64,000 nucleotides of DNA from Promethearchaeota archaeon (GTDB lineage Archaea; Asgardarchaeota; Lokiarchaeia; Sigyniarchaeales; SOKP01): positions 73,166-137,165 of the forward strand of contig JAHPZJ010000013.1 in the NCBI GenBank assembly GCA_019058245.1, read 5' to 3'. The notes below the pieces were generated by a model. That model was given only the letters and a program-made list of their open reading frames with translations, had not been told where the DNA came from and did not search any database. Positions 14,753 to 64,000 of this stretch are shown in pieces. Made by a program: the position numbers and the translations under genes. Within the stretch, counting starts at the first letter, position 1. Every line of letters begins with the position of its first letter.

Positions 14753-15216
14753 TATAAAATCTCTATTAAAGTATCTCTATTATATTAAAGAGAAGTAGGG
14801 CTTTATTATAGTTTAAGATGGATTAGTGTGAGTTAAGTTTATCAGTTTTGAATTATTTGAAGATATTAAGTAGAGATCCTTAAAATTAAATAATTAAAGT
14901 TAAGACTATATGCTTTTTTATTCATATAAATATTATAATGAATTTTTTTATTAATTAAGAATAATATTCAACATTAGATAAATTTTACCGAACAAAAATA
15001 TCATTGTCTTAAATTAGTTAAATAAGAATTTATCAAATAATTTTTAAGTTTATTAATCATGCTTTTATCGTCTAAAAAATACCAAAAAAAAATGCATAAT
15101 TGAACTATTGATGAAATAATTATAAATATTAAAATGAATATTATTCAGTATAAGGAATTAAGATTATGAAAAATTATTTATAAGTAAGAGAAATAATTTT
15201 TCTCCGGTGAATAAAT

Positions 15217-16092
15217 ATAGCAGAAAAAAAGATAGATATCCTCTTAATTGAAGATAATAAAGCTGATGTACGTCTTATTGAAGAATTTTTGAAAAAATCT
15301 GAAGAATTCAAATTTAATTTAGAATCAAAACCTAGACTTTATGAAGGTATGAATTATCTTAAGTCTAGAGACTTTGATATTATTTTATTAGATTTAACCT
15401 TACCGGATAGTGATAAAGAGAATACTCTAGAAATTGTTTTAAACAATACTACCTCTATTCCTATAATTATTTTAACTGGATTAGATGATAAGGATATAGC
15501 ATTAAAATCTCTTCAAAAAGGTGCTCAAGACTATATACTAAAGGATGAATTAAATCAAGGAAATTTAACAAGAGCTATAATATATGCTATTGAAAGACAT
15601 AAAAGTAAAACTGAAAAGATAATAGAGAGAGCTTTAAAAACGCAATTTGATGAAAAAGATAAAGAAATTCTTAATTATCTACAAGACAATTATAAAATCT
15701 CATATAAAGATTTAAGTAAAAAAGTGAATTTAGCTGCCAGCACTATTCATAATCGAGTACAAAATATGATAAAAGAGGGAATAATAAAGAAATTTGATAC
15801 GTTTGTAGATCCTTTTAAAGTTGGATATACATCTATAGCCATTCTTGGTCTTTCTGTAGATCCGTTGAAATCTGAGAATATTGCTAGAAAACTCTCAAAA
15901 TATGATGAAATACAATTAGTTGCCTCCTCTACGGGAGATCATAATTTATTATTGAAAATTATTGCGAAAAACGAAAAATATCTTTGGAGATTTATAAATG
16001 AAGAAATTAAAACTCTAGATGGTATCCAATCACCAATACATGTTTCAAGCTTTTTAGATATCTTTAAAATGTCTCATAAAATTACCTTTTAA
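15217..16092 (+). CDS. response regulator: REC domain fused to an Lrp/AsnC HTH regulator; probable ATA start
   Basis: IDILLIEDN (upstream of the track start), LLDLTLPD, IILTG, GAQDYILK; then FDEKDKEILNYLQ..STIHNRV..GII and an AsnC C-domain. GGTGA+6 nt precedes ATA. Confidence 0.88.
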   Translation: MAEKKIDILLIEDNKADVRLIEEFLKKSEEFKFNLESKPRLYEGMNYLKSRDFDIILLDLTLPDSDKENTLEIVLNNTTSIPIIILTGLDDKDIALKSLQKGAQDYILKDELNQGNLTRAIIYAIERHKSKTEKIIERALKTQFDEKDKEILNYLQDNYKISYKDLSKKVNLAASTIHNRVQNMIKEGIIKKFDTFVDPFKVGYTSIAILGLSVDPLKSENIARKLSKYDEIQLVASSTGDHNLLLKIIAKNEKYLWRFINEEIKTLDGIQSPIHVSSFLDIFKMSHKITF

Positions 16093-16207
16093 TATAGAAA
16101 TAAATTGAACAAATTATCAGCTATATATGATTCTTCTAACAATTAAAGATCCTGGATTTTTCCGATGAATTTTTTTATGTTCATTTAACTTTAATTTTAC
16201 TCAAATT

Positions 16208-17263
16208 TTATTCAAAAGCTTGAGGAATTAACATAATGAAATTACTTCCTTTTGAATAATCTCCAGCTACTTTATCCTCAACCCAAATTTTCCCGCTATA
16301 TTTTTTAAGTATTCTTTTAACGATTGATAATCCAATTCCCATACCTTTAGAATACTTATCTTTATGATTTCTTCTCTTAAAAATAATTTCTTTACGTTCA
16401 TCGGGAATTCCAATTCCGTTATCTTTAATTTCGATTTTTAAATAATTTATATCATTTATTTTTTCATTTGAGAGATTTATTTTAATTTCTACTAAAGAGC
16501 TATCATTATATTTCACAGCATTAATAAATAAATTAAAAAATACTTCATATAATAATTCATTTGCATTAATCCAAATGGTTTTATTTGGGATCTCTATATT
16601 GAAAGTTATTTCTTTATTCTGGTAATAATTTTTAATGTTTACAATTGACTCCTCAAGTATTTCTTTTATACTAATTTTTTTTAAATAAAATTGAGAATCT
16701 TCTAGTTTTGTTAGATTTTGTACATTTAAAGTTAATCTTACACCCCTAAGACATTGATCTCTTATTATTTCAATTAATTCATCTTGTTTATAGACCTTAT
16801 TGCCATTTTTTCTTAAAATTGTATAGAGTTCTGTAGAAGATAAAATATTTTGAAAGATATTATTCATATCATGGCTAATTAAATCTCTATAAAAAAGAAT
16901 GTTACGATATGCTTTAGTTAGTTCTTTAGTTTTTGAAATATTTTCACTTAAAGCAGTAACAATAATACCAACAATTATAATCATTATAGCCCTAAGAATT
17001 TGTTCTAAGTTCTGTAAATAATCAATAATTATACCAAAAAAGAAAGGAAATAAAATTAGTGAGAGTGCCAAATATATAGGGATAAATAAACCATACTTTT
17101 TCCACCAAAAACAAGCTAAAATTGTTGGAATATAGAAGAGATGTGAAAAAAAGATGTTAATTTTTAAAATTATTTGAAATAAATAATTCAAAACGGATGA
17201 AATAATTAAAAGTATGATTATAATGGCATACTTTATTTTTTTAGTGTAATTTTTAATCTTCAT
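16208..17263 (-). CDS. membrane-bound sensor histidine kinase
   Basis: N-terminal TM helices; H-box SHDMNN, N-box NAVKY, G1 DNGIGI, G2 GMGIGL. Confidence 0.92.
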   Translation of the reverse strand: MKIKNYTKKIKYAIIIILLIISSVLNYLFQIILKINIFFSHLFYIPTILACFWWKKYGLFIPIYLALSLILFPFFFGIIIDYLQNLEQILRAIMIIIVGIIVTALSENISKTKELTKAYRNILFYRDLISHDMNNIFQNILSSTELYTILRKNGNKVYKQDELIEIIRDQCLRGVRLTLNVQNLTKLEDSQFYLKKISIKEILEESIVNIKNYYQNKEITFNIEIPNKTIWINANELLYEVFFNLFINAVKYNDSSLVEIKINLSNEKINDINYLKIEIKDNGIGIPDERKEIIFKRRNHKDKYSKGMGIGLSIVKRILKKYSGKIWVEDKVAGDYSKGSNFIMLIPQAFE

Positions 17264-17342
17264 CTCATTCCCCCTTAAAAGAGAGATTATTTTCCTTAGT
17301 TTTTCATAAAATTGAATTTATCTGAATTCAAACATTATAAGC

Positions 17343-18644
17343 TTAATGCGTGGCACATGAAATACAAGGATCAAATGCTCTAATTATCATCTGTACTTCT
17401 TTTTCTACTAATTTAATATCACCAGTTTTATCAAATAGTTCTTGAGCATATTTAGTTATCATTTGATTAAGAAGTGGAATATTAAACTCCGTAGCAATGA
17501 ATAGTTTTATTTCATCAATAATGTTGTTTTTATTTATGTGATAATTATGTATTAAAGTTCCTCTTGGTGCTTCAATAACACCAATACCCTCATTCTTTTT
17601 AATAGATTTAAAAGAAGGAAGATACTTTCTAACATTTAATGAAGGTTCTCCCAATATCTGTATACATTTATATGATTCAATATATATTTCCAGTAATCGT
17701 AAAAAATTAATGAATAGTAAATTATTTGTCCATGATTTATTAAAATATTCAAGATATGTATTAATTTTATCAAAATCATACTTTTCAATAATTTTATAAC
17801 GTGAAAAAGGTCCAACTATTACATTTTTTTTATTTTCAAAAAAGAAATCAATACCTCTTAAATTTATCTCTTTATTAAAATATCTTGTATAGTTTTGAGC
17901 TTCAAATTCTATTAGATTTTTGTCTTCTTTAAGGCTTAAAGAACCAGAATATCGATCATAAATACCATGATTATTTTTCGCTAAACAAATAGTATTTGGT
18001 AAATTAAAATCTTCTGGAGGGATTTGATTACCAAATAATTTAATGAAATCTTCTATAATCCATTCTACAATCGTTAAGGCTTTTTGAAGATATTTTTGAG
18101 ATAATAAAATTAATTTTCCAGAAGGAGAATAAATAACACCTCCGGGAACAATTGAAATCAAGTGAACAGACCTACCACCAAAAATCTCATTGATTTCATT
18201 TCCAAATTTAATTAGATCGTATAAATTTGATGTTAATTGAGGATTAAATTTGATTAATTCATAGGGAGATAAAGTATTTTTACTAATATTAAAAATTTTT
18301 AAAAGATCTGGCAAAGTTTGAAAGAAAAAGTTCATTGAATGGGATTTTATTAATTCTGCTGTCATTAATAGGCGTCTTAAATAAATACTTTGTTCTGAAA
18401 TTTCTATATTGTAAATATCTTCTAAAGTTTTACAACTTGCAATTGCTTGAGAAGCATAACATAAACCACATATTCGAGATACAAATTTAGGAATATCAAG
18501 TAGCCTTTTACCTATTAGGAATTTTTCAAATCCCCTATATACGTTAAATTCAAAATTTGCTAATGAAACTTCATCATTTTGAAGCATAATTTTAACTTCT
18601 CCATGTCCTTCAACACGTGTACATACATTAACAATTTTTTGCAA
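17343..18644 (-). CDS. mvhA: [NiFe]-hydrogenase large subunit, group 3 (MvhA-like), atypical
   Basis: TRVEGHG, RGFE, RICGLC (L1), APRG, RAFDPCISCATH-stop (L2). Confidence 0.88.
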   Translation of the reverse strand: MQKIVNVCTRVEGHGEVKIMLQNDEVSLANFEFNVYRGFEKFLIGKRLLDIPKFVSRICGLCYASQAIASCKTLEDIYNIEISEQSIYLRRLLMTAELIKSHSMNFFFQTLPDLLKIFNISKNTLSPYELIKFNPQLTSNLYDLIKFGNEINEIFGGRSVHLISIVPGGVIYSPSGKLILLSQKYLQKALTIVEWIIEDFIKLFGNQIPPEDFNLPNTICLAKNNHGIYDRYSGSLSLKEDKNLIEFEAQNYTRYFNKEINLRGIDFFFENKKNVIVGPFSRYKIIEKYDFDKINTYLEYFNKSWTNNLLFINFLRLLEIYIESYKCIQILGEPSLNVRKYLPSFKSIKKNEGIGVIEAPRGTLIHNYHINKNNIIDEIKLFIATEFNIPLLNQMITKYAQELFDKTGDIKLVEKEVQMIIRAFDPCISCATH

Positions 18645-18649
18645 TAATA

Positions 18650-19408
18650 TTACCTATTAATCTTTGGTTTTGAAAATCGATTATAAATTCCAGTATATTT
18701 TTGCAATTCTTGAGAAAGTTCTATTAAACTCAAAAAATTTACAACATTAGATGTAAAATCTTTTGATACAGGCCCCATGCATCCTTCGCATGGAAGTCCC
18801 ATTTTTATACATTTATGCTCACAACCATCACGAGTTATTGGTCCCAAACATAAAATACCATTATTTAAAAAACATTCAGAGTTTTCTTCACCTAATCTAA
18901 TTTCTTCGGGATTAGGATTAATTTTAGTTATTTTTATATGGGAATTAATTTCTATACTTCCTCTTAATGGACAATTTGCACACATATTTTTTTCGGATAA
19001 AATTATATCTTTATTTCCAACCAAATTGATTAAACAATTTCCAAAAAATTTAGATGGAGGAGGACAACCAGGAATCATACCATCAATTTCAATATGATTA
19101 GATAAAGGCTCTGCTTTCTTTGAATTAGAAAGGCTTAAAATTCCACCAAAGCAAGCACATGTTCCTAATGCAAAAACTCTTTTAGCACGTTTTCTTATTT
19201 TTCTAATAAGATTTATTTGTGTTTCTTCAGAAATACATCCTTCTACTAATGCAATTTCGCATTCTTCTATATCATCTGAATCTAAAATAAATAGAAAATA
19301 GTTTATTTTTATTCTTTCAAGAAATTGGGGGAAAATATCTAAAGATATAAGAGTCGATATACATCCAGTACATGATGTAAGAGAAATTATATTGAATCTA
19401 GGCTTCAT
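18650..19408 (-). CDS. mvhG: [NiFe]-hydrogenase small subunit (MvhG-like)
   Basis: SCTGC, VEG, GTCACFGG, PGCPP, C..C, CFL..G.LCLGP.T..GC...C....PC.GC.GP. ATG at 19408 follows a GGAGGAG SD. Confidence 0.88.
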   Translation of the reverse strand: MKPRFNIISLTSCTGCISTLISLDIFPQFLERIKINYFLFILDSDDIEECEIALVEGCISEETQINLIRKIRKRAKRVFALGTCACFGGILSLSNSKKAEPLSNHIEIDGMIPGCPPPSKFFGNCLINLVGNKDIILSEKNMCANCPLRGSIEINSHIKITKINPNPEEIRLGEENSECFLNNGILCLGPITRDGCEHKCIKMGLPCEGCMGPVSKDFTSNVVNFLSLIELSQELQKYTGIYNRFSKPKINR

Positions 19409-21947
19409 ACTTAATCTCCTCCAATAGGTTATTATACAATTTATTAGCAGTATCAGCAAATTTATTTCCTTCAACAGCATTCAAATGTTTAAGGATTATT
19501 CGATCTTTATATTTTGGATCTATTACATTTTTTAATAGTCTGATTTTGTTTTCTATCTTTTTTACTCCATCTATATATCGACAAGCATCTTGTCTACATC
19601 CAACTATCATAACTCCATCGAAACCAAGTTCAAATGATTTAATAATAAAGTTTGTATCAATACGTCCTGTACAAGGAACTCTTACAATGAAAACATTAGG
19701 AGTATATGAAATCTTTTTTAGTCCAGCATTATCAGCTGCAGCATATCCACATGATGCACAACAGAAGGCAATGATTTTTGGATTTGATCTGAATTTTGAG
19801 AAAATCTTAATTGTCCTTAAAATTTTCTTAGAAGTATCTATATTTAGGTCTATAGCATTAGTAGGACAAATACTAGCACAAGTGCCACCCCCTTTACATT
19901 TGAATTTATCTATACTAATTTTATCCCTCTCTATTGTAATTGCATTATATGGACAAATTTTTAAACATAAACCACATAAACCACATTTATTTTCATCTAT
20001 TTCAATTCCAGTAAATTCTGCTATTAAATAATCCTTAGAAAGTAATGAAATGACTTTTAAAGCAACATTATTAGCTGTTGAAATAGTAGAATTATAATTT
20101 AAAGGACCGAAAATAGTTCCAACACCATAAATTCCGGATGCTAATGTGTCTACACTCATAAATCCGTTATTATCTAATGTAAAATCCATATATTGTCTAA
20201 GATTTTTTAAATCCTCATTTGGGATATATTTTATATTTAATACTATCAAATCGCTTTGAAATTCTATATTATCCGCAATAACATAATTTATATCTTTAGA
20301 AGATTTAATGCTAATTTTATTTGCATAAATAAATTTAGGGTTTGTAGATCTTAACAAAATCTCATCCTTATCCTTTAACCTACTTAAATCATAAAAAACA
20401 TTTACTTCACAATGAGGATTTCTTATTTTAACATCCTCAATATATTTTTCTGCTAAAATTTCAGAAAAATCTGATAGATATTTTGAAGGACCAACTTCTT
20501 GAATTATTGAAATGGAAATTATGGGCTTTTTATCTGATATCTTTACAAGTTTCCCATCAGTTAGGCCATCAGACGATAAAAGACGCTCAAATTCAGGTGA
20601 TGTTATTATATTTTTTTTTGGATTATAATTATATTCTTCTAAATCTTTATAAAAATCAGATCCAATAGCAATAACTTTAGTACCAACTTTTATTTCAATT
20701 CTTTCTTCTTTTTGATCCAAATCTATTGCTTTATTTATGCAAGCACGTTCACAAATCCTACAATTAAGACAATTCTTTAAATCTTCCTCATCTATCAAAG
20801 GAGCATAAGGATAAGAATGTATGAATGGAATATAAATTAATTTTCGATTACTTAAACCAAATTCATATTGATTTGGTTTTTCTATACTACAAACAGAAAT
20901 ACATTGTTTACATCCTGTACATTTTTTTACATCAACATATCTAGGTTTTTTAATCATATTAATTGTGAAATTTCCAACTTCTCCTGTTACGTTTTCGATT
21001 TCTGTATTTGTGAATATTTTTATATTTTTTTCATTAACTAACTCTGCTATTAATTCAGAAATAAAACATATTGAACAATCACCCATATTATGAATTCTGT
21101 GCCATCTAGCTACCTTACCTCCTAAGGTTGGTGATTTTTCAATAAGATATACTTTTATTCCTGCTCGTGCTAAATTTAAAGATAAAGTTATACCAGCAAT
21201 TCCTCCACCTAAAACAGCACAACTTTTCTCAATTTCAACTCTCTTTACTTTTATTTTTTTTTGAAAACTTACACGTTCAACAGCTGCCTCAATTAATAAC
21301 TTCCCTTTTTCTAGAGGAAGTGATAGATTGTTTTGTTCATCATTTGGTTGATGTACCCAACAACATTGTTCTCTAATATTAGCAATTTCAATATTAGTAT
21401 GATCAATAATATCTTCAAAAATTCTTTCAAAAAGATTTTGGTGAGTTTTAGGAGAACAAGCAGCTATAACTATTTTATTTATAAAATTATCTTTTACCCA
21501 ATTACGAATTTTCTCAAAGTTTTTTTGCTGACAAAGGTTTTCAAATACTTTTACCGAAACTACTTTTTTTAATTTATTTACGTAATTTTCAAGTGCTTTT
21601 ATATTAATTACATTTGAAATTTCTGTATTACAATTACAAATAATTACTCCAACACGACTTATTTCGCTTCTCTTTGAATCAAAATACTCGTCAATAAATT
21701 CTCCTGCTAAAATTCTCTTATTAAGATTAATAATTTTTAAAACACGTTTACCATCTTCTGTGAGAAAATATGCTTTATTGTCCTTACCTATTAATGAACC
21801 AATCTTTTTAAGGTGAAAATTTAATTGTCCAGTCGTATCTAAATTGAGTTTTTCCATTAATTCGGTATATGGAATATATCCTTCTTTTTCTAAAAGAAAT
21901 AAAATCTTTCGTCTAAACGGATGAGATAATATTGAATATATATCCAT
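19398..21947 (-). CDS. winged-HTH / degenerate HdrA / MvhD triple fusion protein
   Basis: N-terminal ArsR-like wHTH (SHPFRRKILFLL..LNFHLKKI..YFLTEDG); HdrA motifs (ICNC, ACSP, NIREQCCWVH, GGGIAG, ferredoxin repeats, EFERL); C-terminal MvhD (FCC..C, RVPCTGRID, GC...CRY). Confidence 0.88.
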   Translation of the reverse strand: MDIYSILSHPFRRKILFLLEKEGYIPYTELMEKLNLDTTGQLNFHLKKIGSLIGKDNKAYFLTEDGKRVLKIINLNKRILAGEFIDEYFDSKRSEISRVGVIICNCNTEISNVINIKALENYVNKLKKVVSVKVFENLCQQKNFEKIRNWVKDNFINKIVIAACSPKTHQNLFERIFEDIIDHTNIEIANIREQCCWVHQPNDEQNNLSLPLEKGKLLIEAAVERVSFQKKIKVKRVEIEKSCAVLGGGIAGITLSLNLARAGIKVYLIEKSPTLGGKVARWHRIHNMGDCSICFISELIAELVNEKNIKIFTNTEIENVTGEVGNFTINMIKKPRYVDVKKCTGCKQCISVCSIEKPNQYEFGLSNRKLIYIPFIHSYPYAPLIDEEDLKNCLNCRICERACINKAIDLDQKEERIEIKVGTKVIAIGSDFYKDLEEYNYNPKKNIITSPEFERLLSSDGLTDGKLVKISDKKPIISISIIQEVGPSKYLSDFSEILAEKYIEDVKIRNPHCEVNVFYDLSRLKDKDEILLRSTNPKFIYANKISIKSSKDINYVIADNIEFQSDLIVLNIKYIPNEDLKNLRQYMDFTLDNNGFMSVDTLASGIYGVGTIFGPLNYNSTISTANNVALKVISLLSKDYLIAEFTGIEIDENKCGLCGLCLKICPYNAITIERDKISIDKFKCKGGGTCASICPTNAIDLNIDTSKKILRTIKIFSKFRSNPKIIAFCCASCGYAAADNAGLKKISYTPNVFIVRVPCTGRIDTNFIIKSFELGFDGVMIVGCRQDACRYIDGVKKIENKIRLLKNVIDPKYKDRIILKHLNAVEGNKFADTANKLYNNLLEEIKYEA

Positions 21948-22033
21948 TTTATTAATTCACCTTTTTTTCTGATATAAGAGACCTATTTTAATATTTCCTT
22001 TTATGATAATTTTAATAATTTTTTTTTTCCCTA

Positions 22034-22064
22034 TGATTAATATTATTGTCAGATTATTTAAATA
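22034..22064. promoter_or_regulatory. TATA-like TATTTAAATA next to a TGA(T/C)(T/A)A-N6-TTGTCA site, upstream of the HTH-hdrA operon
   Basis: The 16-mer TATTATTGTCAGATTA is identical at 22041-22056 and 29542-29557. Confidence 0.5.
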
Positions 22065-22453
22065 TGATCTATTTGGTCTATCTGATTATCAATATTGATA
22101 GAGTAATATGTACCAATACTCTATATTATATTATGTGAATGCTAAATATGGTTTCGGAAAAGGATCAAATAGAGATCAGATCAATAAAAATAGTAAATAA
22201 ATAATAAACAAATTTGTCAAAATAATTATAACTTTTTAATTAAAATTCCTTGAATTGTTATTCTCTGGTTGGATAATAGGAACATATTCTTAGAAAAAAT
22301 TATAATTACTTTTATGTAAATCTTCTTAATAAATTAGTATTCAAAATTTCAATAACAAAATGTGGTGATTTCTTTAAAATATTAAGAATAATTTCCTTGA
22401 ATTATAGATATGATACCCATAATAAATTTTGATTAAGATTTCTTAATCTAAAT

Positions 22454-35134: not shown

Positions 35135-35623
35135 TTAGATTTTTCCAAAACTGGTTGGATAGTTAACCTCTATTCTATTTTTTTTATAATGTCTATTGTT
35201 ATATTCAATTATTTTTTTCTTTATGAGACTAGATGAATTTAATTTAAATTTATCATAAAATTTGTTTAGTCTTTCTACATCAACGTTCTCAAGATTCATA
35301 TCTTTTAATTTTTTCTTTAAATTATTTATATTAAAATTTTGATTTGGACCTAATAAAATGATATCAGGTTTAATTTCCAATACTTTTAATAATGTATTTT
35401 TATCTTGTCTTCCCAATATAGCTTCTTTTACATTTTTTAGATTCTTTATAACTTCTAACCTTTGTTTTTCAGGGATAATTGGCATATTTCCTGAAAATCT
35501 TTTTCTATTTTTATCTGTAGCTACTATTACATAAACTTCACCTAGTTTTGCAGCTTGGTTAATTAAAAATATGTGCCCTGGATGTAAAATATCGAATGTA
35601 CCAGCTATAAGTACTTTTTTAAC
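35135..35623 (-). CDS. ribL: archaeal FAD synthase (cytidylyltransferase family); probable GTT start
   Basis: In-frame extension upstream of the track ORF reads (V)KKVLIAGTFDILHPGHIFLINQAAKLGEVYVIVATD; later KPDIILLG and SSSLIK. Confidence 0.85.
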   Translation of the reverse strand, partial: VKKVLIAGTFDILHPGHIFLINQAAKLGEVYVIVATDKNRKRFSGNMPIIPEKQRLEVIKNLKNVKEAILGRQDKNTLLKVLEIKPDIILLGPNQNFNINNLKKKLKDMNLENVDVERLNKFYDKFKLNSSSLIKKKIIEYNNRHYKKNRIEVNYPTSFGKI

Positions 35624-36147: not shown

Positions 36148-36339
36148 TTAATCTTTCAATTTCGCAAAGCAATCTTTACAAAAAAAAATTCTCCGTATCT
36201 TAGAAGCATCCCAAACCATATGGCCTGATTTATGCTTTGTTTCGCAACCCCAACACATTTTATATAAATCAGTGTCAACAAAATATTCATCATCAGTATG
36301 AAAAATATCGTCTTTAATTAATTCTTTATAAGTTCTCAC
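36148..36339 (-). CDS. small hypothetical Zn-finger-like protein
   Basis: CWGC...FCKDC; GTG start with a GGAGATG SD; directly downstream of a palindrome copy. Confidence 0.6.
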   Translation of the reverse strand: MRTYKELIKDDIFHTDDEYFVDTDLYKMCWGCETKHKSGHMVWDASKIRRIFFCKDCFAKLKD

Positions 36340-36370
36340 TTCTTTTTACATCTCCACTAAGTTATAGTTT

Positions 36371-39020: not shown

Positions 39021-39224
39021 TTATTACTCTCATTCGATAAAAAAATTAATTTTGATAAAAATGAAACTCTACTTATGTATAAAGTATTATTACTAAAAAG
39101 CAGTTAACTTTAATAGTCAGAATAGAGGGAAAAATATATTAGGGAAAGTATTTAATGAAATTATTATTGTTTATATTATACTTATAATTTGATTTAGCTG
39201 AGGAGCACAGGAATATAACTAAAA

Positions 39225-39434
39225 TTGAAGAACGAAAATAGAACATGTAAATGGTATCCTGTTTGCCCAATTAAGTATTTTGTCGATCATGGAAAACTTG
39301 ATAGAAAATGGGTTGAAAATTATTGTTCAATTGGGAATAAAGAGTGTATAAGATATAAGCTAGAAGAAAGTGGAAAATTTCATCCTGATAATATGCTACC
39401 AAATGGTGAAATAAAGAAAGAACTTCATTATTGA
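39225..39434 (+). CDS. small Cys-rich hypothetical protein
   Basis: CKWYPVCP..W...YC...C.RY...PDNMLP.G. Confidence 0.65.
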   Translation: MKNENRTCKWYPVCPIKYFVDHGKLDRKWVENYCSIGNKECIRYKLEESGKFHPDNMLPNGEIKKELHY

Positions 39435-39989: not shown

Positions 39990-40158
39990 TAATATAAAAA
40001 TTCTTTCTCTTTAAATAATAAGATATGAGGAGTTATAATGTCTTTTAGAAGAATGTTTTAATAATTTTGAATAATTAATAATAAAAACTTGAATTAATAA
40101 TTTTATATAGGGAATAAAATAGTAACAATAGTTCAAATTATCTTTTTGGTGATTTGGT

Positions 40159-40578
40159 ATAGGAAGAAGAAGACATCGAAGATGGGTTAATCAGCCACCT
40201 GAGAATTTTTATTTTATCAAGGATTCAACATTAACGGAAGAATCAATAACTCTAACTGTTGCTGAATTTGAAGCAATGAGATTAAAGCATTATTTAGATA
40301 TGAATCAAAAAGCAGCAGCTGAAAGAATGGGTATCAGTCAACCTACATTCTCAAGAATTCTTGAGAGTGCTCATAAAAAAAATACTCTCGCAATAATCGA
40401 GGGGAAAGATATTAAAGTTTATGGAGGGAATTTTGATTATAAATTAAGTTTTAAAGGTTATGGGTGTTTAAATTGTAATCATGAATGGGAAGATTCTAAT
40501 GCCTCCAAGGAGCGAAAAGTTAATTGTGTAAAATGTGATTCTAATAATGTATATTACTTTGAAAGAGCATTGATTTAG
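40159..40578 (+). CDS. DUF134 (UPF0251) DNA-binding protein with C-terminal Zn ribbon; probable ATA start
   Basis: (I)GRRRHRRWVNQPP...LTVAEFEAMRL..Q..AA..MGISQPTFSRIL.SA; CLNC...CVKC. GGTGA+6 nt precedes ATA. Confidence 0.85.
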   Translation: MGRRRHRRWVNQPPENFYFIKDSTLTEESITLTVAEFEAMRLKHYLDMNQKAAAERMGISQPTFSRILESAHKKNTLAIIEGKDIKVYGGNFDYKLSFKGYGCLNCNHEWEDSNASKERKVNCVKCDSNNVYYFERALI

Positions 40579-43105: not shown

Positions 43106-44005
43106 TTGATTACAATTAAGAGGTGTAAGATTATTCAAGATAAAGAAATCCCAGATATCGATTTGAAGAAGACAGTTGAACAAGGAAAGAAAGAAAAAAT
43201 GGATCAATTAACAGAAAATATAAAGGAAAATATGAGCAAAATTAAACATAAAATTGTAGTTATATCTGGTAAAGGTGGTGTGGGAAAAACTACTGTAGCA
43301 GTAAATCTTGCTATGAGTTTAGTTAGTTTTGGATTGAGAGTTGGAATTTTAGATGTGGATATTACAGGACCAAATATATTGAAAATGTTGGGTATTGACC
43401 CAAATCTTAAACCAAGGATTGATCCTGAGAAGAAAAGATTTTATCCCGTTAATGGACCTTTAAATCTTAAAACAATGAGTATGGCATTTCTCATTGAAAG
43501 TTCTGACTCACCTGTTATCTGGAGGGGTCCAATGAAAATGAGTGCCGTGAGACAATTTCTGGGGGAAGCAATTTGGGGAGAATTAGATTATTTAATTTGT
43601 GATTTGCCACCAGGAACTTCTGATGAAACACTGGATATTTTACAACTTATTCCAGATGAGAATGTTGTTGTAGTTTCTACTCCTCAAGAAGTAGCATTAA
43701 TGGATGCTAGAAAAACTATAAGAATGGCTCAGATTATGGAACGTAAAGTTTTAGGTATAATTGAGAACATGTCTGGTTTTAATTGTCCTCATTGTGGGGA
43801 ATATATTGATTTATATCCTCCAGGAGGAGTAACAAAAGCAGCTGAAGATTTTAATGTTAAATTATTAGGCAAAATTCCTTTCGAAATTGAAGTAAGTCAG
43901 CAAGGAGATCTAGGAATGCCTTTCACATTAAAATATCCAGATAGTGCATCCACAAAAGCTTTTAAAGAAACAGTTAAGACCATTCGAGAAATATTAGAAA
44001 AATAA
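43106..44005 (+). CDS. mrp: Mrp/NBP35 Fe-S cluster carrier ATPase (start may be ATT at 43133)
   Basis: SGKGGVGKT, DVDITGP, PVIWRGP, DLPPGT, ENMS..CPHC. Confidence 0.93.
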   Translation: MITIKRCKIIQDKEIPDIDLKKTVEQGKKEKMDQLTENIKENMSKIKHKIVVISGKGGVGKTTVAVNLAMSLVSFGLRVGILDVDITGPNILKMLGIDPNLKPRIDPEKKRFYPVNGPLNLKTMSMAFLIESSDSPVIWRGPMKMSAVRQFLGEAIWGELDYLICDLPPGTSDETLDILQLIPDENVVVVSTPQEVALMDARKTIRMAQIMERKVLGIIENMSGFNCPHCGEYIDLYPPGGVTKAAEDFNVKLLGKIPFEIEVSQQGDLGMPFTLKYPDSASTKAFKETVKTIREILEK

Positions 44006-46425: not shown

Positions 46426-46619
46426 AAAAAAAAAATTTTATATTTAATATTTTATAATTAATTTCAGCAGATTATTGATATTTATATCAATAGGCATAAC
46501 TTTTTCTTTTAAAATATAGAAGGGAGATTTAATACATTGAAAATCTCTGTTTTCGTAGCTTATATTTAAAAAAAAATAGTATTAATATTATAAAAATAAA
46601 AAATCAAAGGTGATAATTT

Positions 46620-46985
46620 ATTAATCAAGAAAAAAAACATATTTTATATGTTCAAACTAGTCATGACCCCGAACGACAATATTCACCATTAGTATTAGCT
46701 CAAACTGCTAAAGCAATGGATATTGAAGCTACTGTTTATTATTTAGGCACGGCATTAAGAATACTAAAACCTGGAGAAGCTGAAAAAATAAAACTTGGTG
46801 CTTTTCCAAGTGTAAAGGAAATGATTGATAAAACTTTGGAGCAAGGAATAAAGATATTAGTTTGTGAGGCATCAAAAAGAATGTTAGGATGGGAAAAAGT
46901 AGATTTAATTCCAGGTGTGAAAATTGTTGGAGCTGCGACATTAAATGATTTAGTATTAGAAGTAGATGCAACTCAATGGTTTTAA
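46620..46985 (+). CDS. DsrE/DsrF-like sulfur-relay protein; probable ATT start
   Basis: In-frame extension (I)NQEKKHILYVQTSHDPERQYSPLVLAQTAKAM; G.KILVCE.S, IVGAAT. GGTGA+6 nt precedes ATT. Confidence 0.8.
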   Translation: MNQEKKHILYVQTSHDPERQYSPLVLAQTAKAMDIEATVYYLGTALRILKPGEAEKIKLGAFPSVKEMIDKTLEQGIKILVCEASKRMLGWEKVDLIPGVKIVGAATLNDLVLEVDATQWF

Positions 46986-47246
46986 ACTGAAAAATTTATA
47001 TCAACTTTTAAATTTTTAAAGCATATAAAAATCGTTAGAAATGTTTAAAAGTCGTTATGTATTATATTGATTTAGTAAAATATCTTCATAAATATTAAAT
47101 TTATATATTTATGTGTGGTATATTAATTTAAAGATAAAATAATTTTTAATTTTTTTATATTATTTATTAATAATTTGATACGCCTAAATTTTAATTCAAT
47201 GAATAATTCAATTATTATAGAAGAACAATGATCTTGGTGAAAGTAA

Positions 47247-47546
47247 ATTAATAATTTTTTATCAAAAGAAAAAGATAAGGAGACCGTTTTTTCTGCTCCG
47301 CTGATTAAATGTTTAACAGAATGTAAAAAAGAAGAAGAAGTTACTATAGTAAGTGTAAGAGCAGGTTATAACGCAAAAAGACGTCTTGCAAATTTAGGAA
47401 TTGTTCCAGGAGTAAAAATTAAAAAAAAACAATCTGCTCCTATGAGAGGACCTTTACAAATTATTGTTAAAGGAACATCCTTAGTAATCGGAAGGGGTTT
47501 AGCAGCAAAAATCTTTGTAAAATGCGATCCGAGTTGTGTACTATAG
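47247..47546 (+). CDS. feoA: ferrous iron transport protein FeoA (missed by the ORF track); probable ATT start
   Basis: Hand translation ...CLTECKKEEEVTIVSVRAGYNAKRRLANLGIVPGVKIKKKQSAPMRGPLQIIVKGTSLVIGRGLAAKIFV...; directly upstream of feoB. Confidence 0.88.
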   Translation: MNNFLSKEKDKETVFSAPLIKCLTECKKEEEVTIVSVRAGYNAKRRLANLGIVPGVKIKKKQSAPMRGPLQIIVKGTSLVIGRGLAAKIFVKCDPSCVL

Positions 47547-57488: not shown

Positions 57489-57517
57489 TCCTAATAGATT
57501 CATATTTTTATATATTT

Positions 57518-58048
57518 TTAATTTTTATCAAAAGGATCTGGGATTTTTATATCAAGCATAAATTGAAGCATCCCAAAAGCTAACACTATTAATAAAAATG
57601 CAATTACCAAAATCCAATCTGCAAATTTTTTATTGTAAACATATTTTGATGCATGATATATAAATATAAATCCGGTTGAGAACAGAAGCATTAGAACTGA
57701 TGCAACTATACTTTCAATAATAAAAGCTTCATAAATCTCGTCATACCATATCAAAATTGGTATATTATTGTTATCTGAAACCATCGAAGGAGGTTTTTTC
57801 ACAATCAAATATATTACTCCAGTTTGAAGAATGAATAAAATTGTAAAAATACCAATAATAATAAATGATTTAGGCGGTAAGGGTAATCTTAATCTAGGGC
57901 GTTTGAATTTAGGAAAGATAATTTTTGGTTTCCTAATTTTTTGACCAAAGATCCATGGAGTTTTCTTTTTAATTTTTTCAAAAATTGTTTCCGAACCGAG
58001 AATTTCTTTCTTTTTATTCTGATCTTTAATTTTTACTTGTTTTCTCAA
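57518..58048 (-). CDS. oligosaccharyltransferase accessory subunit, OSTC/DC2 (OST3/OST6 family)-like
   Basis: Pro/Lys-rich N-terminus, FILQTGVIYLIVKKPPS, FIIESIVAS.....GF, three TM helices. Confidence 0.7.
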   Translation of the reverse strand: MRKQVKIKDQNKKKEILGSETIFEKIKKKTPWIFGQKIRKPKIIFPKFKRPRLRLPLPPKSFIIIGIFTILFILQTGVIYLIVKKPPSMVSDNNNIPILIWYDEIYEAFIIESIVASVLMLLFSTGFIFIYHASKYVYNKKFADWILVIAFLLIVLAFGMLQFMLDIKIPDPFDKN

Positions 58049-58412
58049 ATTGATTTTAACCTTAAAATACGAATTCTAATATACAGTTTAAAATATCTAT
58101 AATCTTCCTCAAGATCATAGTTAATATAAAACAATCAATACAAAAAGTGAAGTTATTATATACAATATACGAAAAAATATTATAGATTTAAAGATTTAAA
58201 ATAAAAAATCCCAATTTGTATAATAGAACAAATATTCACTTTTCATATTGATGGATTTATATATTGAAAATTATAATTCATCAATAATAAAAAAAAAATT
58301 GTGATAATCTCTTTTCAATTTGTTTTTAACAAAACTAGTAGATTAATTACTAATAACTAATCTATAATTTTAGAATCCAATTTGATTAATTATAATATTT
58401 ATATTAAAGAAG

Positions 58413-59453
58413 ATGAAAAAAAACCTAAAAATTAAACTTAAAATTCTTTTTTTAATGAATTTATTCATCTTACCTTTAGTATTCTATATATATTCTAATC
58501 ATATAAAAAATGTAGAAAAAGTTAATGAAGATTATAATGTAAAAGATTTTGATTTAGATGATTTCCATTTTTCAGGCACAATCAATGAAGAAATCTCTGT
58601 TATTTCATTTGAAAATCCTCAAATTAGAGAATTTAATAATTTCATTGAACTAATATTAAGAAATCAAGAAAATTCTTATTTTATTTTTAGTTTTAATGCA
58701 ATCTTCTTACCATTTCTGCTTCTGGTACTTTTTATAAATATTTCAATAAATAAAAACTTTAAAGAGGTACACTCATTAGAAATTGAAGGCATATTAATAA
58801 CGAAAAAGGAAATGAAGATATTTGACTTAATTCAAGAATATTTAAATCATAATAGGATTTTTACCAAAGATAGCGTGGTTTCATATATCAAATCAAGATC
58901 TAAAACGAACGGCAACCTAAATTATAATGGTATTATAACTGTTATTGATTCACTCTTAACAAAGAATTTAATCCTTGAAGGGTCAAAATTTACTAGAAAA
59001 ACAGTTCTTTTAAATTCAAATAGGAAAACCGTTTATGATATGATAAATGAATATCCTGGAATCTATATGAATAAATTATCGAAAAAATTAAAATTAAGCC
59101 CATTTGTTATAAAGTGGCATTTATCAATATTGTCGAAATTTAATTTAATAAGAAAATTAAAGTTGAATAACAAAATATCCTATTTCAATTCTTCTTTGAA
59201 TACAGAAAATGATGAGCTTTTCAATATAATCTCAAGAGAAAAATGCATGAAAATAATTAGTTTTTTACATAAAAACAATAAAGGATATACTAAAAATCAA
59301 ATTGCTAAGTTATTAAATATGCATTACAATACAACAACTAAATACCTAAATGAAATTGATAAATTTAATTTATTAATTAAAAAACAAGCAAACAAGACTG
59401 AATATATTTATCTAAATGAAAATTATTATAAAAGTATAATAAAAGAATCTTGA
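58413..59453 (+). CDS. membrane-anchored protein with C-terminal tandem winged-HTH domains
   Basis: Two TM segments; N.NR..VY..I...PG.....L.....WHL..L and a second HTH (IAKLLNMHYNTT.KYL). Confidence 0.75.
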   Translation: MKKNLKIKLKILFLMNLFILPLVFYIYSNHIKNVEKVNEDYNVKDFDLDDFHFSGTINEEISVISFENPQIREFNNFIELILRNQENSYFIFSFNAIFLPFLLLVLFINISINKNFKEVHSLEIEGILITKKEMKIFDLIQEYLNHNRIFTKDSVVSYIKSRSKTNGNLNYNGIITVIDSLLTKNLILEGSKFTRKTVLLNSNRKTVYDMINEYPGIYMNKLSKKLKLSPFVIKWHLSILSKFNLIRKLKLNNKISYFNSSLNTENDELFNIISREKCMKIISFLHKNNKGYTKNQIAKLLNMHYNTTTKYLNEIDKFNLLIKKQANKTEYIYLNENYYKSIIKES

Positions 59454-59674
59454 ATTTTAAATTAAATCATTTTTTACTATTTGTACTACTTATTGAAACA
59501 TAAATAGTTTCTATAAGAATAAATTATATTCATAAATTTCTTTCATAATATTACTAGTTGAGATCATATACTAAAAATCAAATTTTTAGATTTTGATTAT
59601 TATTTACCGAAAAACTCATGATTTCATTTCTTAAATAAATTTTTTAGATGATACACACAAAAAGAGTATAAGTT

Positions 59675-61183
59675 ATGGATTCATTGAATAATAAGTTAAA
59701 GAAATCTGAGATAAATTATTTTAATCTTATTAATAACATTTTAGATGTAGTAGTAGAATTAAGATTAGATTTTATTATTGATTATATTAATCCTCAAATT
59801 TTAGATTTAGCTGGATATCAGCCTGATGAAATAATAGGAAGAAATTCACTAGAATTTATTCATCCTGATGATAGACAAGAAGTAATTAAAGCAATTGACA
59901 AAGGAATAAAGACAGGAGAAACAATCTCAATAGTATTTAGAATTCAACATAAAGAAGGTTTTTATGTACCCACTTTTGCCAGGGGGCGTAAGATAGAGTA
60001 TGATAATCAAACTAGAATCATAAGTACACTTAGAGATATATCAAAAGAATTAAAAAAGGAACAGAAGTTAAAGGAATCCGATGTAAGATACAGAGAAATT
60101 ATTGAGAATATTAAAGATGGTTACTTTGAAATAGATCTAAATGGAAATTATACTTACGTTAACAATTATATTTGTAAATACTTAAACGTCTCTAAAGATG
60201 AAATAATAGGGAAAAATTATACTTTATTCTTAGAAAAAAGTTCACAAGAGGAAGTATTTAAAGCATTTAATGAAGTTTACACAAAAAATCTTCAAAAAGG
60301 TTCTTTTCAGAGTAAAATAATAAGAGGAGACGGAGAAAAACGTATCTTCGAAGGATATTTTTACTTAAGATATAACAATGATGGAAAAATAAATGGTTTT
60401 TACGGCTTTACTCGAGATATTACTGAGAGAAAAGAAGCAGAACAGAAATTAAAGGAATCTGAAAAAAGATTTCGAGAAGCTTATAATCGAGCTGAATTAT
60501 ATAAAGATCTCTTTTACCATGATATAAATAATCTTCTTTCTAATATAAGTATCTCCGTTGACCTTAGTGAAAAACATCTGAAGGATTCATCTGAAGAAGA
60601 AAATATTAAGGTTTTTTATAATGTCATTAGAGATCAATTTGCGAGAGGAAAAAGATTAATATCTAATGTTAAAAATCTATCTGAATTAGCAGATTCCAAG
60701 ATTTCTTTAAAATCAATAAATGCATTCGAAGTATTACAGGATGCTATACAATATATTCATAATAGTGTCCATACTAAAAAAGTTAATATTTTCGTTGATT
60801 CTTTCGATAAAGAAATATATATTCGTGCAAATGAACTATTATCAGATGTTTTTGAGAATATATTAGTGAATGCTGTTAAATACAATGAAAATCAAACAAT
60901 AGAAATTTTTGTAAAGATCTCCAGAGATAATAAATTAAACAAGAACTTTTTAAAGTTTGAGTTTATGGATAATGGAATTGGTATAACAGATCAAAAAAAA
61001 GAAATAATATTTATACAGGGATATAATAAAGATAAGGGTTCTAAGGGTATGGGAATTGGATTGACACTGGTTAAAAAGATACTAGATAATTATAGTGGCG
61101 AAATCTGGGTTGAAGATAAGGTAAAAGGAGATTATGCGAAGGGAAGCAATTTTATTATTCTAATTCCAGAAATCATAAATTAA
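59675..61183 (+). CDS. PAS-PAS sensor histidine kinase (cytoplasmic)
   Basis: IHPDD, RDIS/RDITERK, H-box YHDINN, NAVKY, DNGIGI, GMGIGL. Confidence 0.93.
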   Translation: MDSLNNKLKKSEINYFNLINNILDVVVELRLDFIIDYINPQILDLAGYQPDEIIGRNSLEFIHPDDRQEVIKAIDKGIKTGETISIVFRIQHKEGFYVPTFARGRKIEYDNQTRIISTLRDISKELKKEQKLKESDVRYREIIENIKDGYFEIDLNGNYTYVNNYICKYLNVSKDEIIGKNYTLFLEKSSQEEVFKAFNEVYTKNLQKGSFQSKIIRGDGEKRIFEGYFYLRYNNDGKINGFYGFTRDITERKEAEQKLKESEKRFREAYNRAELYKDLFYHDINNLLSNISISVDLSEKHLKDSSEEENIKVFYNVIRDQFARGKRLISNVKNLSELADSKISLKSINAFEVLQDAIQYIHNSVHTKKVNIFVDSFDKEIYIRANELLSDVFENILVNAVKYNENQTIEIFVKISRDNKLNKNFLKFEFMDNGIGITDQKKEIIFIQGYNKDKGSKGMGIGLTLVKKILDNYSGEIWVEDKVKGDYAKGSNFIILIPEIIN

Positions 61184-61375
61184 ATTATCTAATTTTTCAT
61201 TCTCTAATTTCATTAAGTAGAATTAAAACATAAAGATATTATTATCTAATATAAACATTTAAAAGTCTAGGTTTATATTTAATGCTATTGAAAATTCAAT
61301 ATTAAAACACTTTAGATTTATATAAATCAAATATTTTCCCAAACGTATTCAAATAAAAAGAGGAGTTGTATTAGA

Positions 61376-63055
61376 ATTATTAGAAAGAGAACAATCTTAA
61401 TTATAATATTTTCAATAACATCTATTATTGTCCAATTATTCGGAGTGCAATATCTAGGCATTAAATTTACATCTCATGATCTTGAATTTGAATATGTTTA
61501 TAATTGGGACTTAACGGGAACTGGGGGATGGTATGAAGGGTATGAAGAAGCTTTTAGAGCAAAAGGTCATTATAGTATTGTTTTTAACGAAAATTATGCA
61601 AATGTAACAGCTCGAGTTTCATGGAAATTTTCTGAAAACTATTATGGGACCTCACAACGTGGATTAGATACATATATATTTTCATATTCATTAATCGATG
61701 GAGCTTATATATGGGGGACTGATCAAGATGTCCTTAATACTACAAATATGAATGTCTGGTTTCATATTCCTGGAGGGATTAAGGCATCTAAATATGATAT
61801 TCTCGATACATCATATAATGTAAAAAGTGGAGAACATCTTATTTGGGTTGGATCACTAATGCCTTTTAATGGAAAGAAACTTCATAGTGAGGGAAATTAT
61901 TTTCGAGATGATATATATGGTGAATTTGATGTTATTTATGAGGTGGGTAATTTCTTTTCAAAGGAGGGTTATTTAATTGGCGAATTATATAAAGAACAAG
62001 ATTCGGGGTATGATAGGGATACAGGACGTTGGTCAACATTTAGATTAGATTCCTATATTTTTATTACATCTTCGAGTTATCTAAGGCCTTTTAATTTTGG
62101 AATCTACTTTTTAGTGTATTGGGCTCCAATATTATTATGCATGATTCTATTTTATGTTCTATATGAAAACCTTCGTTGGAGACCAAGAATAATTCCGAAA
62201 GGATATGAAGAAATAACCGTTGAGAGAAATTTACCTCAATTTGAGAGTTTTGGGATACAATCGGCTTATTCAGAAATGATACCTTCATATTTAGTTAGAG
62301 CAAGATCTCATGAAAAAAAAATTGTGAGTGCTCATAAAAATGGCGTAATAGAAGGAATAGGATTTATTGATTCAAATGGAAAAGTTGGGACATTTTATGG
62401 AAGTCATGTAGGAGATATGGTAAAATATACTAAAGTAAAATATTTATTTACAGAAATAGGAAGAGGATTAAGAGGTTTTAACACAATCGAGAAATATGAT
62501 ATCTTTGAAATTGATAATATTCAAGAATTAGATTTAAGTTTTGATACTGTAAATATAAAGCCTCTTGAGGAAATTCATTTAGAAGCTATTATGAAAATGA
62601 TAGCAAATGAAGATAGTGGTAAAAAAAGGAAGAAATTTGCTAAGTGGGTTATTAAATCCTATGAGGATGATATCGCGGTTAGTTCTACAGTACCAAGGAC
62701 AGAGCCTTGGGTTCAATCAATAATATCGGATTTATTTCGAGGTGATTATCCCAAACCAGAAATTATAGATGATGAAATAATATTGGGTGTAGGCTTCGCA
62801 ACTCCTGGAGAAGAAACAGGATGGTTATACGGTCTTTATGTACATCCTGCTTTTAGAAATCATGGGATAGGGAGAATGCTTGTATCAGCTCGATTATCAT
62901 CTCTTAAGGAAATTGGTTGTAGACGAGTGATTACGGAAATAGCTGAATGGAATAGCCCTGCAAAAAACATATATGATGATTATAATGCACGAATAATAGG
63001 AAAAATTAATCTTTTAGGTAAAAAAATGCCTAAAGTTAAGGTGAGACGCTACTGA
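61376..63055 (+). CDS. membrane-spanning protein: extracellular domain, TM helix, C-terminal GNAT domain; probable ATT start upstream of the track's GTG
   Basis: In-frame signal-like extension IIRKRTILIIIFSITSIIVQLFG after a GAGGAG SD; GNAT motif YVHPAFRNHGIG..L, N.PA..IY. Confidence 0.75.
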   Translation: MIRKRTILIIIFSITSIIVQLFGVQYLGIKFTSHDLEFEYVYNWDLTGTGGWYEGYEEAFRAKGHYSIVFNENYANVTARVSWKFSENYYGTSQRGLDTYIFSYSLIDGAYIWGTDQDVLNTTNMNVWFHIPGGIKASKYDILDTSYNVKSGEHLIWVGSLMPFNGKKLHSEGNYFRDDIYGEFDVIYEVGNFFSKEGYLIGELYKEQDSGYDRDTGRWSTFRLDSYIFITSSSYLRPFNFGIYFLVYWAPILLCMILFYVLYENLRWRPRIIPKGYEEITVERNLPQFESFGIQSAYSEMIPSYLVRARSHEKKIVSAHKNGVIEGIGFIDSNGKVGTFYGSHVGDMVKYTKVKYLFTEIGRGLRGFNTIEKYDIFEIDNIQELDLSFDTVNIKPLEEIHLEAIMKMIANEDSGKKRKKFAKWVIKSYEDDIAVSSTVPRTEPWVQSIISDLFRGDYPKPEIIDDEIILGVGFATPGEETGWLYGLYVHPAFRNHGIGRMLVSARLSSLKEIGCRRVITEIAEWNSPAKNIYDDYNARIIGKINLLGKKMPKVKVRRY

Positions 63056-64000
63056 TTGAAAATATAACTTATAATTCGCTTTATCATCAGAGTTTATTAA
63101 ATTCTATTAACTTTAATTTATTTAAGGTTGAACCAGAGGAGATTGATATAAATGAGCAATTTAAATTACCTAAAGAATGGTATAGTACCTATTTGGGAAC
63201 TGCTACAGCGGAATTTCATGGTTTGAATCATAAATCAATACCCGCTATTAGAGATGAAAATAGAAATGCAATAATTCCAGAAAAATTCATTGAAATTGAA
63301 GGAAAAATCTTTTATTTATCAGTAAAAGGATGTGGAGCATATGAAGATATGTTTTTTGGGGGAAAACTTAACCCTAGTAAAATAAAGAACGCATGTCGAG
63401 ACTTAAAATATCTAGACAAAATTGAAAAATTATCCACTGGATTAGGATTTATAATGGGGGAGTCTTGGATGGGTGAAAGTCCATATGGAGCTCAAGGCTT
63501 TATTAATGGATTTGATGAATTGAACTTTTCTAGAATTGCTAAATTGGATTCTATTAATGGTGCTTATATCTGTCCCTCTATAGCTGTTATTAAACTCCCT
63601 AAATATATAGAAGACACCGCGAGAAATTTCTTTTGGTTTCGAACCTATAAAAATCATTTCTATCAAATACTACGTCTGCTTCCTTCAAATATACGATTAT
63701 ATTTTGAATCATCTAACGTAGTTGCTAATCCTGGTTCTATTTTTAAATTATTTGAGATTAATACTGTAGATAAAGCACAAATTTTTGAATTAAATTTTAT
63801 CAAAAGTGGAATTGCTCTTTTAACACTTTATACTCGTTCTGCAATAATTGAAGGAAATCAAGTTAAAGGTATTTATTTTCAAGATGTATGGTTAGATAAA
63901 GATTGTGTAGTAGCTCCAAATGGAACAATTCATTTCGCTGATATTGAAGGATTTATTTGGAAAAAAGTATCTATTGATAAATATAATGAAATTCAGAAAA
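63052..64000 (+). CDS. hypothetical protein, possibly kinase-like fold; 3'-truncated
   Basis: Frame open from after TAA 63037 to the window end; CTG at 63052 overlaps the previous TGA; LSVKGCG and VVAPNGTIHFADIEG motifs. Confidence 0.65.
   Translation, partial: MIENITYNSLYHQSLLNSINFNLFKVEPEEIDINEQFKLPKEWYSTYLGTATAEFHGLNHKSIPAIRDENRNAIIPEKFIEIEGKIFYLSVKGCGAYEDMFFGGKLNPSKIKNACRDLKYLDKIEKLSTGLGFIMGESWMGESPYGAQGFINGFDELNFSRIAKLDSINGAYICPSIAVIKLPKYIEDTARNFFWFRTYKNHFYQILRLLPSNIRLYFESSNVVANPGSIFKLFEINTVDKAQIFELNFIKSGIALLTLYTRSAIIEGNQVKGIYFQDVWLDKDCVVAPNGTIHFADIEGFIWKKVSIDKYNEIQK

Follow-up and report, generated by a model that had tools for sequence, protein, structure and literature searches.

The DNA analysed here (hereafter the window) is a stretch of 64,000 nucleotides (nt) from a Promethearchaeota archaeon (GenBank assembly GCA_019058245.1, contig JAHPZJ010000013.1, positions 73,166 to 137,165). 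The source genome (G000; the window lies on its contig C13) is a metagenome-assembled genome (MAG) of 3.09 Mb, with 29% GC and 76% completeness. It belongs to the family referred to below as f1 and was compared with the 53 other genomes of its genus. Our subject is a group of genes which appear to begin at codons other than ATG, GTG and TTG (canonical starts, collectively NTG), closely behind a Shine-Dalgarno (SD) sequence with the core GGTGA. Codons with one mismatch from AUG are termed near-cognate. The features concerned are the following:

15206..15210, + strand: SD core GGTGA of the REC-Lrp gene, its TGA being an in-frame stop
15217..16092, + strand: receiver-domain plus Lrp/AsnC regulator (REC-Lrp), 291 codons, ATA start (from Pfam and orthologs)
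35135..35623, - strand: cytidylyltransferase-family (RibL-like) gene, ribL, 162 codons, probable GTT start; SD GGTGA at 35634-35630
40148..40152, + strand: SD core GGTGA of the DUF134 gene, kept in 29 orthologs
40159..40578, + strand: DUF134 gene, 139 codons, ATA start (from orthologs and six Logan contigs)
43133..44005, + strand: Mrp/NBP35 Fe-S carrier ATPase (mrp), ATT start behind GAGGTGT (GGTGT at 43122-43126)
46609..46613, + strand: SD core GGTGA of the DsrE gene, with a further in-frame stop, TAA, behind it
46620..46985, + strand: DsrE-family gene, 121 codons, ATT start (from orthologs and Pfam)
47236..47240, + strand: SD core GGTGA of feoA, with an in-frame TAA immediately 5' of the start
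47247..47546, + strand: FeoA gene, 99 codons, ATT start, upstream of feoB and missed by gene callers
61379..63055, + strand: membrane GNAT-domain gene, ATT start most likely at 61379, weak SD (from homologs and orthologs)
63052..64000, + strand: gene without a Pfam family, CTG start, overlapping the GNAT stop and running off the window
9531..10715, + strand: thiolase with a canonical GTG start six nt behind GGTGA (comparator)

A first-pass annotation of the window had placed the starts of REC-Lrp, ribL, DUF134, DsrE and feoA exactly six nt behind GGTGA. All five sites are present in the sequence with the proposed codons and the in-frame TGA, as is the thiolase GTG at the same distance. The accompanying claim that the conserved N-termini of these genes precede any in-frame NTG was borne out by Pfam. 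The domain begins at residue 8 in REC-Lrp (first in-frame NTG 24 codons after the start), at residue 6 in ribL (46 codons), at residue 2 in DUF134 (39), at residue 6 in DsrE (32) and at residue 23 in feoA (65), which would lose two-thirds of its length if translated from that NTG. Moreover, in none of the five can an upstream NTG be reached through the UGA.

The alignments of orthologs point to the same positions. At the start column, REC-Lrp orthologs have ATA (four) or ATG (two) behind an identical spacer, and TTG and ATC in others. The close orthologs of DUF134 have 28 ATA and one ATC behind GGTGA, the distant ones 24 ATG; those of DsrE have ATT (four), ATA and ATG, and those of feoA ATC, ATA or GTA. 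The ATG anticipated at the same position in orthologs was thus found for DUF134, REC-Lrp and DsrE, as well as for the GNAT gene. Among orthologs the spacers vary freely in sequence, while their length is kept.

Sequencing error was examined by comparing 90-base stretches at the start sites with Logan contigs from other sequencing runs. Contigs identical at 90 of 90 bases were found for ribL (four), DUF134, DsrE and feoA (six each), and therefore an indel explanation, which the first-pass annotation had wished to see excluded, fails at those four sites; the REC-Lrp site is matched by its orthologs. Among the runs from the source sediments, SRR14802572 and SRR26074164-226 contain the family f1 DNA.

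Its three weaker cases were partly upheld. For mrp, the ATT is present in 18 of 18 close orthologs (ATA, GTA and ATG occur in more distant ones), but it is not obligate, as there is an in-frame TTG upstream at 43106, where the public gene call begins. The GNAT gene does have an ATT start, but most likely at 61379, one codon later than the proposed 61376: homologs of about 557 amino acids (aa) begin at this column, where orthologs have ATG (two) or ATA (two). The CTG at 63052 does overlap the GNAT stop, and orthologs in the same context have CTG (two) or TTG (three), but it lies seven nt behind GGTGA (63040-63044). In ribL a non-NTG start is required, although GTT is the least secure codon call of the set; its closest orthologs have ATT in this column, behind an in-frame TGA.

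Several further observations concern these genes. An out-of-frame ATG mini-ORF (open reading frame) of five codons covers the SD and start of ribL (35637-35620, - strand), with similar arrangements at loci L002 and L003; it could act as a competitor or a regulator of this weak start. RibL-like paralogs occur two per genome in G020, G031, G035 and G036, and of the two, the type found in the window, whose start is non-NTG in L001-L003, may be secondary. Of 100 family genomes, 50 contain a match to the fusion of REC with Lrp/AsnC at E<=1e-40 (near full length in about 38), and a second Lrp gene often lies about 2.5 kb from it in family genomes. The closest DUF134 loci carry mostly Promethearchaeota labels, i.e. 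Lokiarchaeia; five loci 72-91% identical at DUF134 (L061, L064, L066, L071 and L085) have NCBI labels of Odin-, Hod-, Hermod- and Thorarchaeota, and are probably mislabelled Lokiarchaeia. The window also contains small open frames of 64-71 codons, below usual calling limits and two of them with cysteines, at 39219-39434 (+), 36148-36345 (-) and 13754-13948 (+).

Genome-wide extent and the sequence rule

To follow the proposed genome scan, we considered all ORFs of at least 100 codons opening directly behind the TGA of GGTGA (n=50) and recorded the codon in the +6 slot. An NTG or near-cognate codon was found in 46 of 50, with the distribution ATA 16, ATG 10, TTG 6, ATT 5, GTG 3, CTG 2, ATC 2, ACG 1 and GTT 1; three of the remaining four have an NTG at +9. 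The proposed start codons occupy 27 of the 31 non-NTG slots (26 with one mismatch and one GTT), against about 15% expected (p~1e-18), and this is therefore not a matter of chance. When the search was extended to all frames (GGTG-led ORFs that lack a canonical start nearby and carry a near-cognate codon at a distance of 5-7 nt), 92 near-cognate calls were obtained against about 13 by chance. ATA was the commonest (43 of 92), and isoleucine codons made up 82. The N-terminal extensions defined by these calls score as coding in 90% of cases, in comparison with 89% of true N-termini and 48% of the negative control.

A general scan by SD strength gave a near-cognate excess of about 100-120 among 2,637 ORFs. 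Very probably, therefore, some 3-5% of the genes, including four for ribosomal proteins, are translated from ATA, ATT, ATC, CTG or ACG located 5-7 bases behind GGTG(A). The list includes uL16, uL15, eL21, uS10, isoleucyl-tRNA synthetase (IleRS) and aIF5A, and for all of these except uL15 the profile matches start upstream of the first NTG. uL15 has ATT in the source genome and ATG or TTG in relatives, and by a strict pattern uL16 begins with ATC or ATA in 6 of 11 genomes of the genus. A survey of the spc operon revealed one or two obligate non-NTG starts in some f1 genomes, after several 'NONE' rows had been discarded as alignment-offset artefacts. By motif recognition, the list also holds two TFB-like genes, several small GTPases, a roadblock-like protein, a proteasome beta subunit, IscU and three coiled-coil paralogs, all beginning with ISIDW at ATT.

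The first-pass annotation had included GTT among the regular starts. This did not hold: GTT accounts for 3 of 128 sites and GTN codons show no enrichment genome-wide, with single GTT or GTA cases in ribL of the window and in feoA and mrp orthologs. AAG and AGG are not used among the genome-wide calls. Translational coupling was considered as a cause and rejected, since the distance to an upstream stop on the same strand exceeds 100 nt for 65% of the calls, a larger share than among canonical genes.

The supposedly fixed six-nt spacing also had to be revised, as near-cognate starts lie 5, 6 or 7 nt behind the SD in 30, 46 and 16 cases, respectively. Six appeared fixed because the TGA of the SD is in frame only at this distance (an ascertainment effect), whereas five-nt cases are hidden because the SD's own GTG is then in frame. 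Such an in-frame GTG (or TTG) inside the SD at five-nt spacing was seen at L007, L015, L018, L065 and L090; in cases of this kind a gene caller would add three residues and report no SD. The permitted spacing narrows from ATG (4-10 nt) through GTG and TTG (peak at 5-7) to near-cognate codons (5-7). The SD is complementary to the 3' end of 16S rRNA and stands at the spacing of canonical starts.

Near-cognate starts are licensed by the start-proximal GGTG core; GGAGG alone does not license them, and total SD strength is not decisive. GGTGA precedes 59 near-cognate and 87 canonical starts, whereas GGAGG or AGGAG without the GTG core precedes 12 and 100 (p=6e-8). The dose response to SD strength runs from 57 of 70 at the strongest SDs to background level at weak ones. 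The sites in use are more AU-rich and less folded than the internal GGTGA sites, which are numerous. ATG starts have a strong SD in 25% of cases and almost no SD in 44%. Dependence on the SD is therefore a property of weak starts and not of the lineage, as the first-pass annotation had supposed. Its relaxed start-codon selection survives as the use of near-cognate codons, but is conditional on a GGTG core, a distance of 5-7 nt and an unstructured AU-rich leader.

Start codons are strongly conserved in DUF134 (ATA, 29 of 30), mrp (ATT, 18 of 18) and aIF1 (ATT, 30 of 32), in each case above the median conservation of 4-fold sites (0.68-0.72). The near-cognate excess is also present in G006 and G099 of family f1 and in G060 of the same class; family f2 has scattered cases and a weak excess. 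No significant excess was detected in the samples from families f2, f4, f10, f12 and f19, which comprise 120-400 kb and are too small to show absence, or in the small sample of G085 (31% GC). Two closed genomes, G050 (4,324,194 bp) and G055 (6,035,313 bp), carry domain-supported ATT candidates. Candidate genes are TrmO in G050 (L249:15847, ATT), whose domain spans residues 17-131 while its first NTG is codon 111, and LMW-PTP (L246:1176) and PP2C (L244:6169) in G055.

Initiation machinery and the start of aIF1

The genes of the initiation machinery are not in the source assembly and were therefore read from relatives. The anti-SD is canonical, GAUCACCUCC, in 30 family genomes. The initiator tRNA (tRNAi) of relatives has the anticodon CAU, an A1-U72 pair and three G-C pairs. 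Archaeal initiation factor 1 (aIF1) was found in 48 of 53 genus genomes, and aIF1A and the aIF2 subunits are present in the family. The inspection of aIF1 and tRNAi, proposed at the outset, thus revealed a canonical tRNAi and an aIF1 with its key loops intact. Family aIF1 has AKKKCASGG where M. jannaschii has LKDICACGG, a change common to family f2, and its SUI1 scores are 46-70 bits, against up to 86.

In family f1 the aIF1 gene itself starts at ATT, ATC or ATA, with no in-frame NTG (ATT 30 and ATC 2 among 32 close copies), usually at a long nine-nt spacing from a broken SD. In family f2 it starts at TTG or ATG. Loci of other Asgard families were also compared (L203, L037, L038, L040, L032, L202, L235, L198, L052 and L055). 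The gene apparently starts at ATA in f7, f14, f19, f20 and f21, and at CTG in f9 and one f12 genome, not all of these being traced to an upstream stop; ATG or GTG is used in f8, f10, f18, f24, f26, f27, f30 and f32. The recurrence of near-cognate aIF1 starts across Asgard families suggests, from these comparisons, an autoregulatory start that may be old or have arisen repeatedly.

The aIF1 of f22, f25, f28 and f21 is without the N-terminal zinc knuckle (L031, L033, L046, L049, L054, L035, L044, L057, L042 and L202), and in f22, f25 and f28 the loop preceding ILLQGD, at the place of loop 2 in eukaryotic eIF1, is longer. The tRNA genes of the source genome are mostly 100-138 nt long, with introns at varied positions (C29:20062-20199, C9:1484-1586, C30:177461-177561 and others); its elongator tRNA-Met looks to carry two introns, and ARAGORN without intron mode reported only six tRNAs.

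Mechanism, alternatives and implications

As far as sequence comparison goes, the position, codon set, SD dependence and conservation of these starts are established, and the explanation that we favour as a whole, with considerable confidence, is that they are genuine near-cognate starts whose register is fixed by the SD, with feedback through aIF1 as its weaker step. By pairing with the canonical anti-SD (UCACC) beside the P site, GGUGA would fix the register, and the normal Met-tRNAi (CAU) would be accommodated on a two-of-three match, so that the protein starts with Met. We are strongly confident that it is the GGUGA:UCACC duplex, holding the codon in the P site, which would permit initiation on such a match. 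AUG would need little help (spacing 4-10 nt, often no SD), whereas weaker codons would require a proximal duplex and exact spacing. The order of codons behind GGUG(A) is AUA > AUU > AUC, CUG and ACG, in the column where orthologs have AUG. Near-cognate starts would have a lower efficiency than AUG, and in some genes selection would maintain them, as the conservation of start codons exceeds that of 4-fold sites; aIF1, from its own AUU, AUC or AUA start, would set the tolerance through a negative feedback like that of IF3 on infC. Towards this part of the explanation, from lower output to feedback, we lean only slightly; many genes may owe their start codon to drift under AT bias.

Several points weigh against this explanation. 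The starts are known here from sequence alone. Loop 1 of aIF1 (RKWG) and its QGDH motif are intact, so that there is no lesion to explain tolerance. The source assembly was searched for aIF1, aIF1A, aIF2beta, aIF2gamma, tRNAi and 16S rRNA, none of which was found, and no inference is drawn from this result. Internal GGTGA followed by near-cognate codons showed no avoidance in coding regions, and the comparison of start codons with 4-fold sites ignores phylogeny. Moreover, GTT of ribL differs from AUG at two positions and is an exception to the one-mismatch feature, its orthologs having ATT.

By its sequence-level features, the predicted mechanism works like that of S. aureus ccpN, cvfC1 and infC and of E. 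coli infC and pcnB. The S. aureus AUA and AUU starts (infC, cvfC1, ccpN and citZ) follow extended SDs, and their output is about 10% of that from AUG; they share with those described here the codons, the strong start-proximal SD pairing and conservation in relatives, but concern four genes of a bacterium with IF3 and were revealed by profiling (PMC13009471). Our predictions comprise about 80-120 genes, ribosomal proteins included, of an archaeon with aIF1 and aIF2. In E. coli, infC and pcnB start at AUU, so that there too a fidelity factor's own gene begins at a near-cognate codon, and AUA, AUC, AUU and CUG form a second tier at 1-2% of AUG (10.1101/063800; PMC13009471). The difference is one of extent, two confirmed genes against a predicted few percent of the Lokiarchaeon genome, with ACG in addition; the aIF1 feedback would be the archaeal analogue. 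Deinococcus dnaA (ATC), rpsL (CTG) and infC (ATA) are likewise essential genes with conserved non-canonical starts missed by annotation, although they are a handful, proven by peptides, and the available part of that article describes no SD-register rule (PMC2830850). The closest archaeal parallel, with the same kind of anti-SD, tRNAi and factors, is SD-led initiation in P. abyssi (PMC6237735, PMC7531240). According to the accessible portions of these articles, its model mRNA has GGUGA five nt before AUG, the 30S:mRNA:aIF1 complex needs the GUGAU half of the SD for its stability and efficiency is reduced at long spacing (PMC6237735), whereas only AUG, GUG and UUG are considered as starts (PMC6237735, PMC7531240). 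The review among them does not regard the SD as prevalent in the annotated genome of Loki, and makes no mention of AUA or non-AUG (PMC7531240). The literature searched, with most subscription journals outside it, contained no report of such starts in Asgard archaea, and no precedent for their scale, for their archaeal setting or for the GGTG-core rule.

Neutral origin is the alternative which survives best. AT-biased mutation (29% GC) would convert ATG to ATA wherever a strong SD tolerates it, with no tuning or feedback; this agrees with the core claim and competes only with its last step. ATA, one G-to-A transition from ATG, is indeed the commonest class, codons are swapped freely in REC-Lrp, DsrE and ribL, and sampled genomes of about 50% GC have no significant excess. 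On the other hand, the start codons of DUF134, mrp and aIF1 exceed 4-fold conservation, aIF1 apparently has ATA or CTG in several other Asgard families, and G085 shows no significant excess at 31% GC, if on a small sample. We regard a purely neutral origin as a real possibility, albeit the less probable one.

A change of the machinery peculiar to the lineage (a modified tRNAi wobble base, an Ile-charged initiator or a weakened aIF1 or aIF2) might instead have broadened decoding generally. Mitochondria have reassigned AUA to Met by means of a modified tRNA, and initiate at AUA and AUU without an SD. As there, ATA is the commonest non-ATG start in an AT-rich genome, and the predominance of Ile codons among the calls, the low SUI1 scores and the AKKKCASGG variant all agree with such a change. 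In contrast to mitochondria, however, internal ATA aligns here as Ile; no mitochondrial-type recoding of AUA as Met was found, the anticodon being a canonical CAU and the starts depending on GGTG. The tRNAi, anti-SD and key aIF1 loops are canonical, the additional use of CTG, ACG and TTG is consistent with one-mismatch pairing to CAU, the aIF1 variant is also present in f2, where the excess is weak, and the tolerance depends strictly on SD context. We consider this explanation unlikely.

Still less can be said for a hidden canonical start, whether reached by reading UGA as selenocysteine, by a programmed frameshift, by removal of a short mRNA intron or by editing of the RNA to AUG. Lokiarchaea do use selenocysteine, and ribL has an out-of-frame ATG just upstream; nevertheless, 25 of 33 GGTGA+6 calls reach no NTG even when TGA is read, DsrE and feoA carry an additional in-frame TAA, spacers vary freely at kept length and leaders are weakly folded, editing would have to be of five kinds to serve the five different codons, and ATG and ATA alternate behind an identical spacer in REC-Lrp, which makes any such route very improbable. 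Loss of ATG through assembly or sequencing errors (indels or G-to-A miscalls), conceivable for a MAG, can be practically dismissed, as it is refuted at the four sites with identical contigs, the same codons recur in dozens of separately assembled species, and errors would not cluster 5-7 nt behind GGTG.

Returning to genuine SD-positioned starts, family f1 might represent a distinct regime, in which the start-proximal SD half replaces the third codon-anticodon pair and about 100 near-cognate genes form a regulon whose output is set by a self-limiting aIF1; such a regime would be an archaeal precursor of non-AUG translation under eIF1 control. This picture, in which ribosomal proteins, IleRS, aIF5A, TFB paralogs and small GTPases would be members of the putative regulon, is a doubtful one.

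The prediction that standard gene callers truncate or miss such genes was supported for Prodigal-type programs, which truncate or omit genes with near-cognate starts. Truncated DUF134, DsrE, RibL, REC-Lrp and GNAT proteins are present in the public collection (GNAT homologs of 435-547 aa occur beside 557 aa), and no feoA gene is called in L368-L369. It does not extend to every pipeline, since NCBI starts the DsrE ortholog UCC21364.1 at ATA and homology-aware pipelines therefore rescue some genes. Probably thousands of Asgard protein records are N-terminally wrong, with the loss of catalytic motifs, P-loops or first membrane helices, and small genes such as feoA are missed. The in-frame GTG of the SD can be called as a start at five-nt spacing, which may add to the view that SDs are rare in Lokiarchaea.

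To conclude, in the bacteria studied near-cognate starts have been confirmed for two to four genes, whereas here they would serve a few percent of genes. The setting is the prokaryotic group closest to eukaryotes, with a eukaryote-like aIF1/aIF2 core. With a rule as clear as a GGUG core at 5-7 nt, the balance between SD positioning and aIF1 proofreading becomes directly testable.

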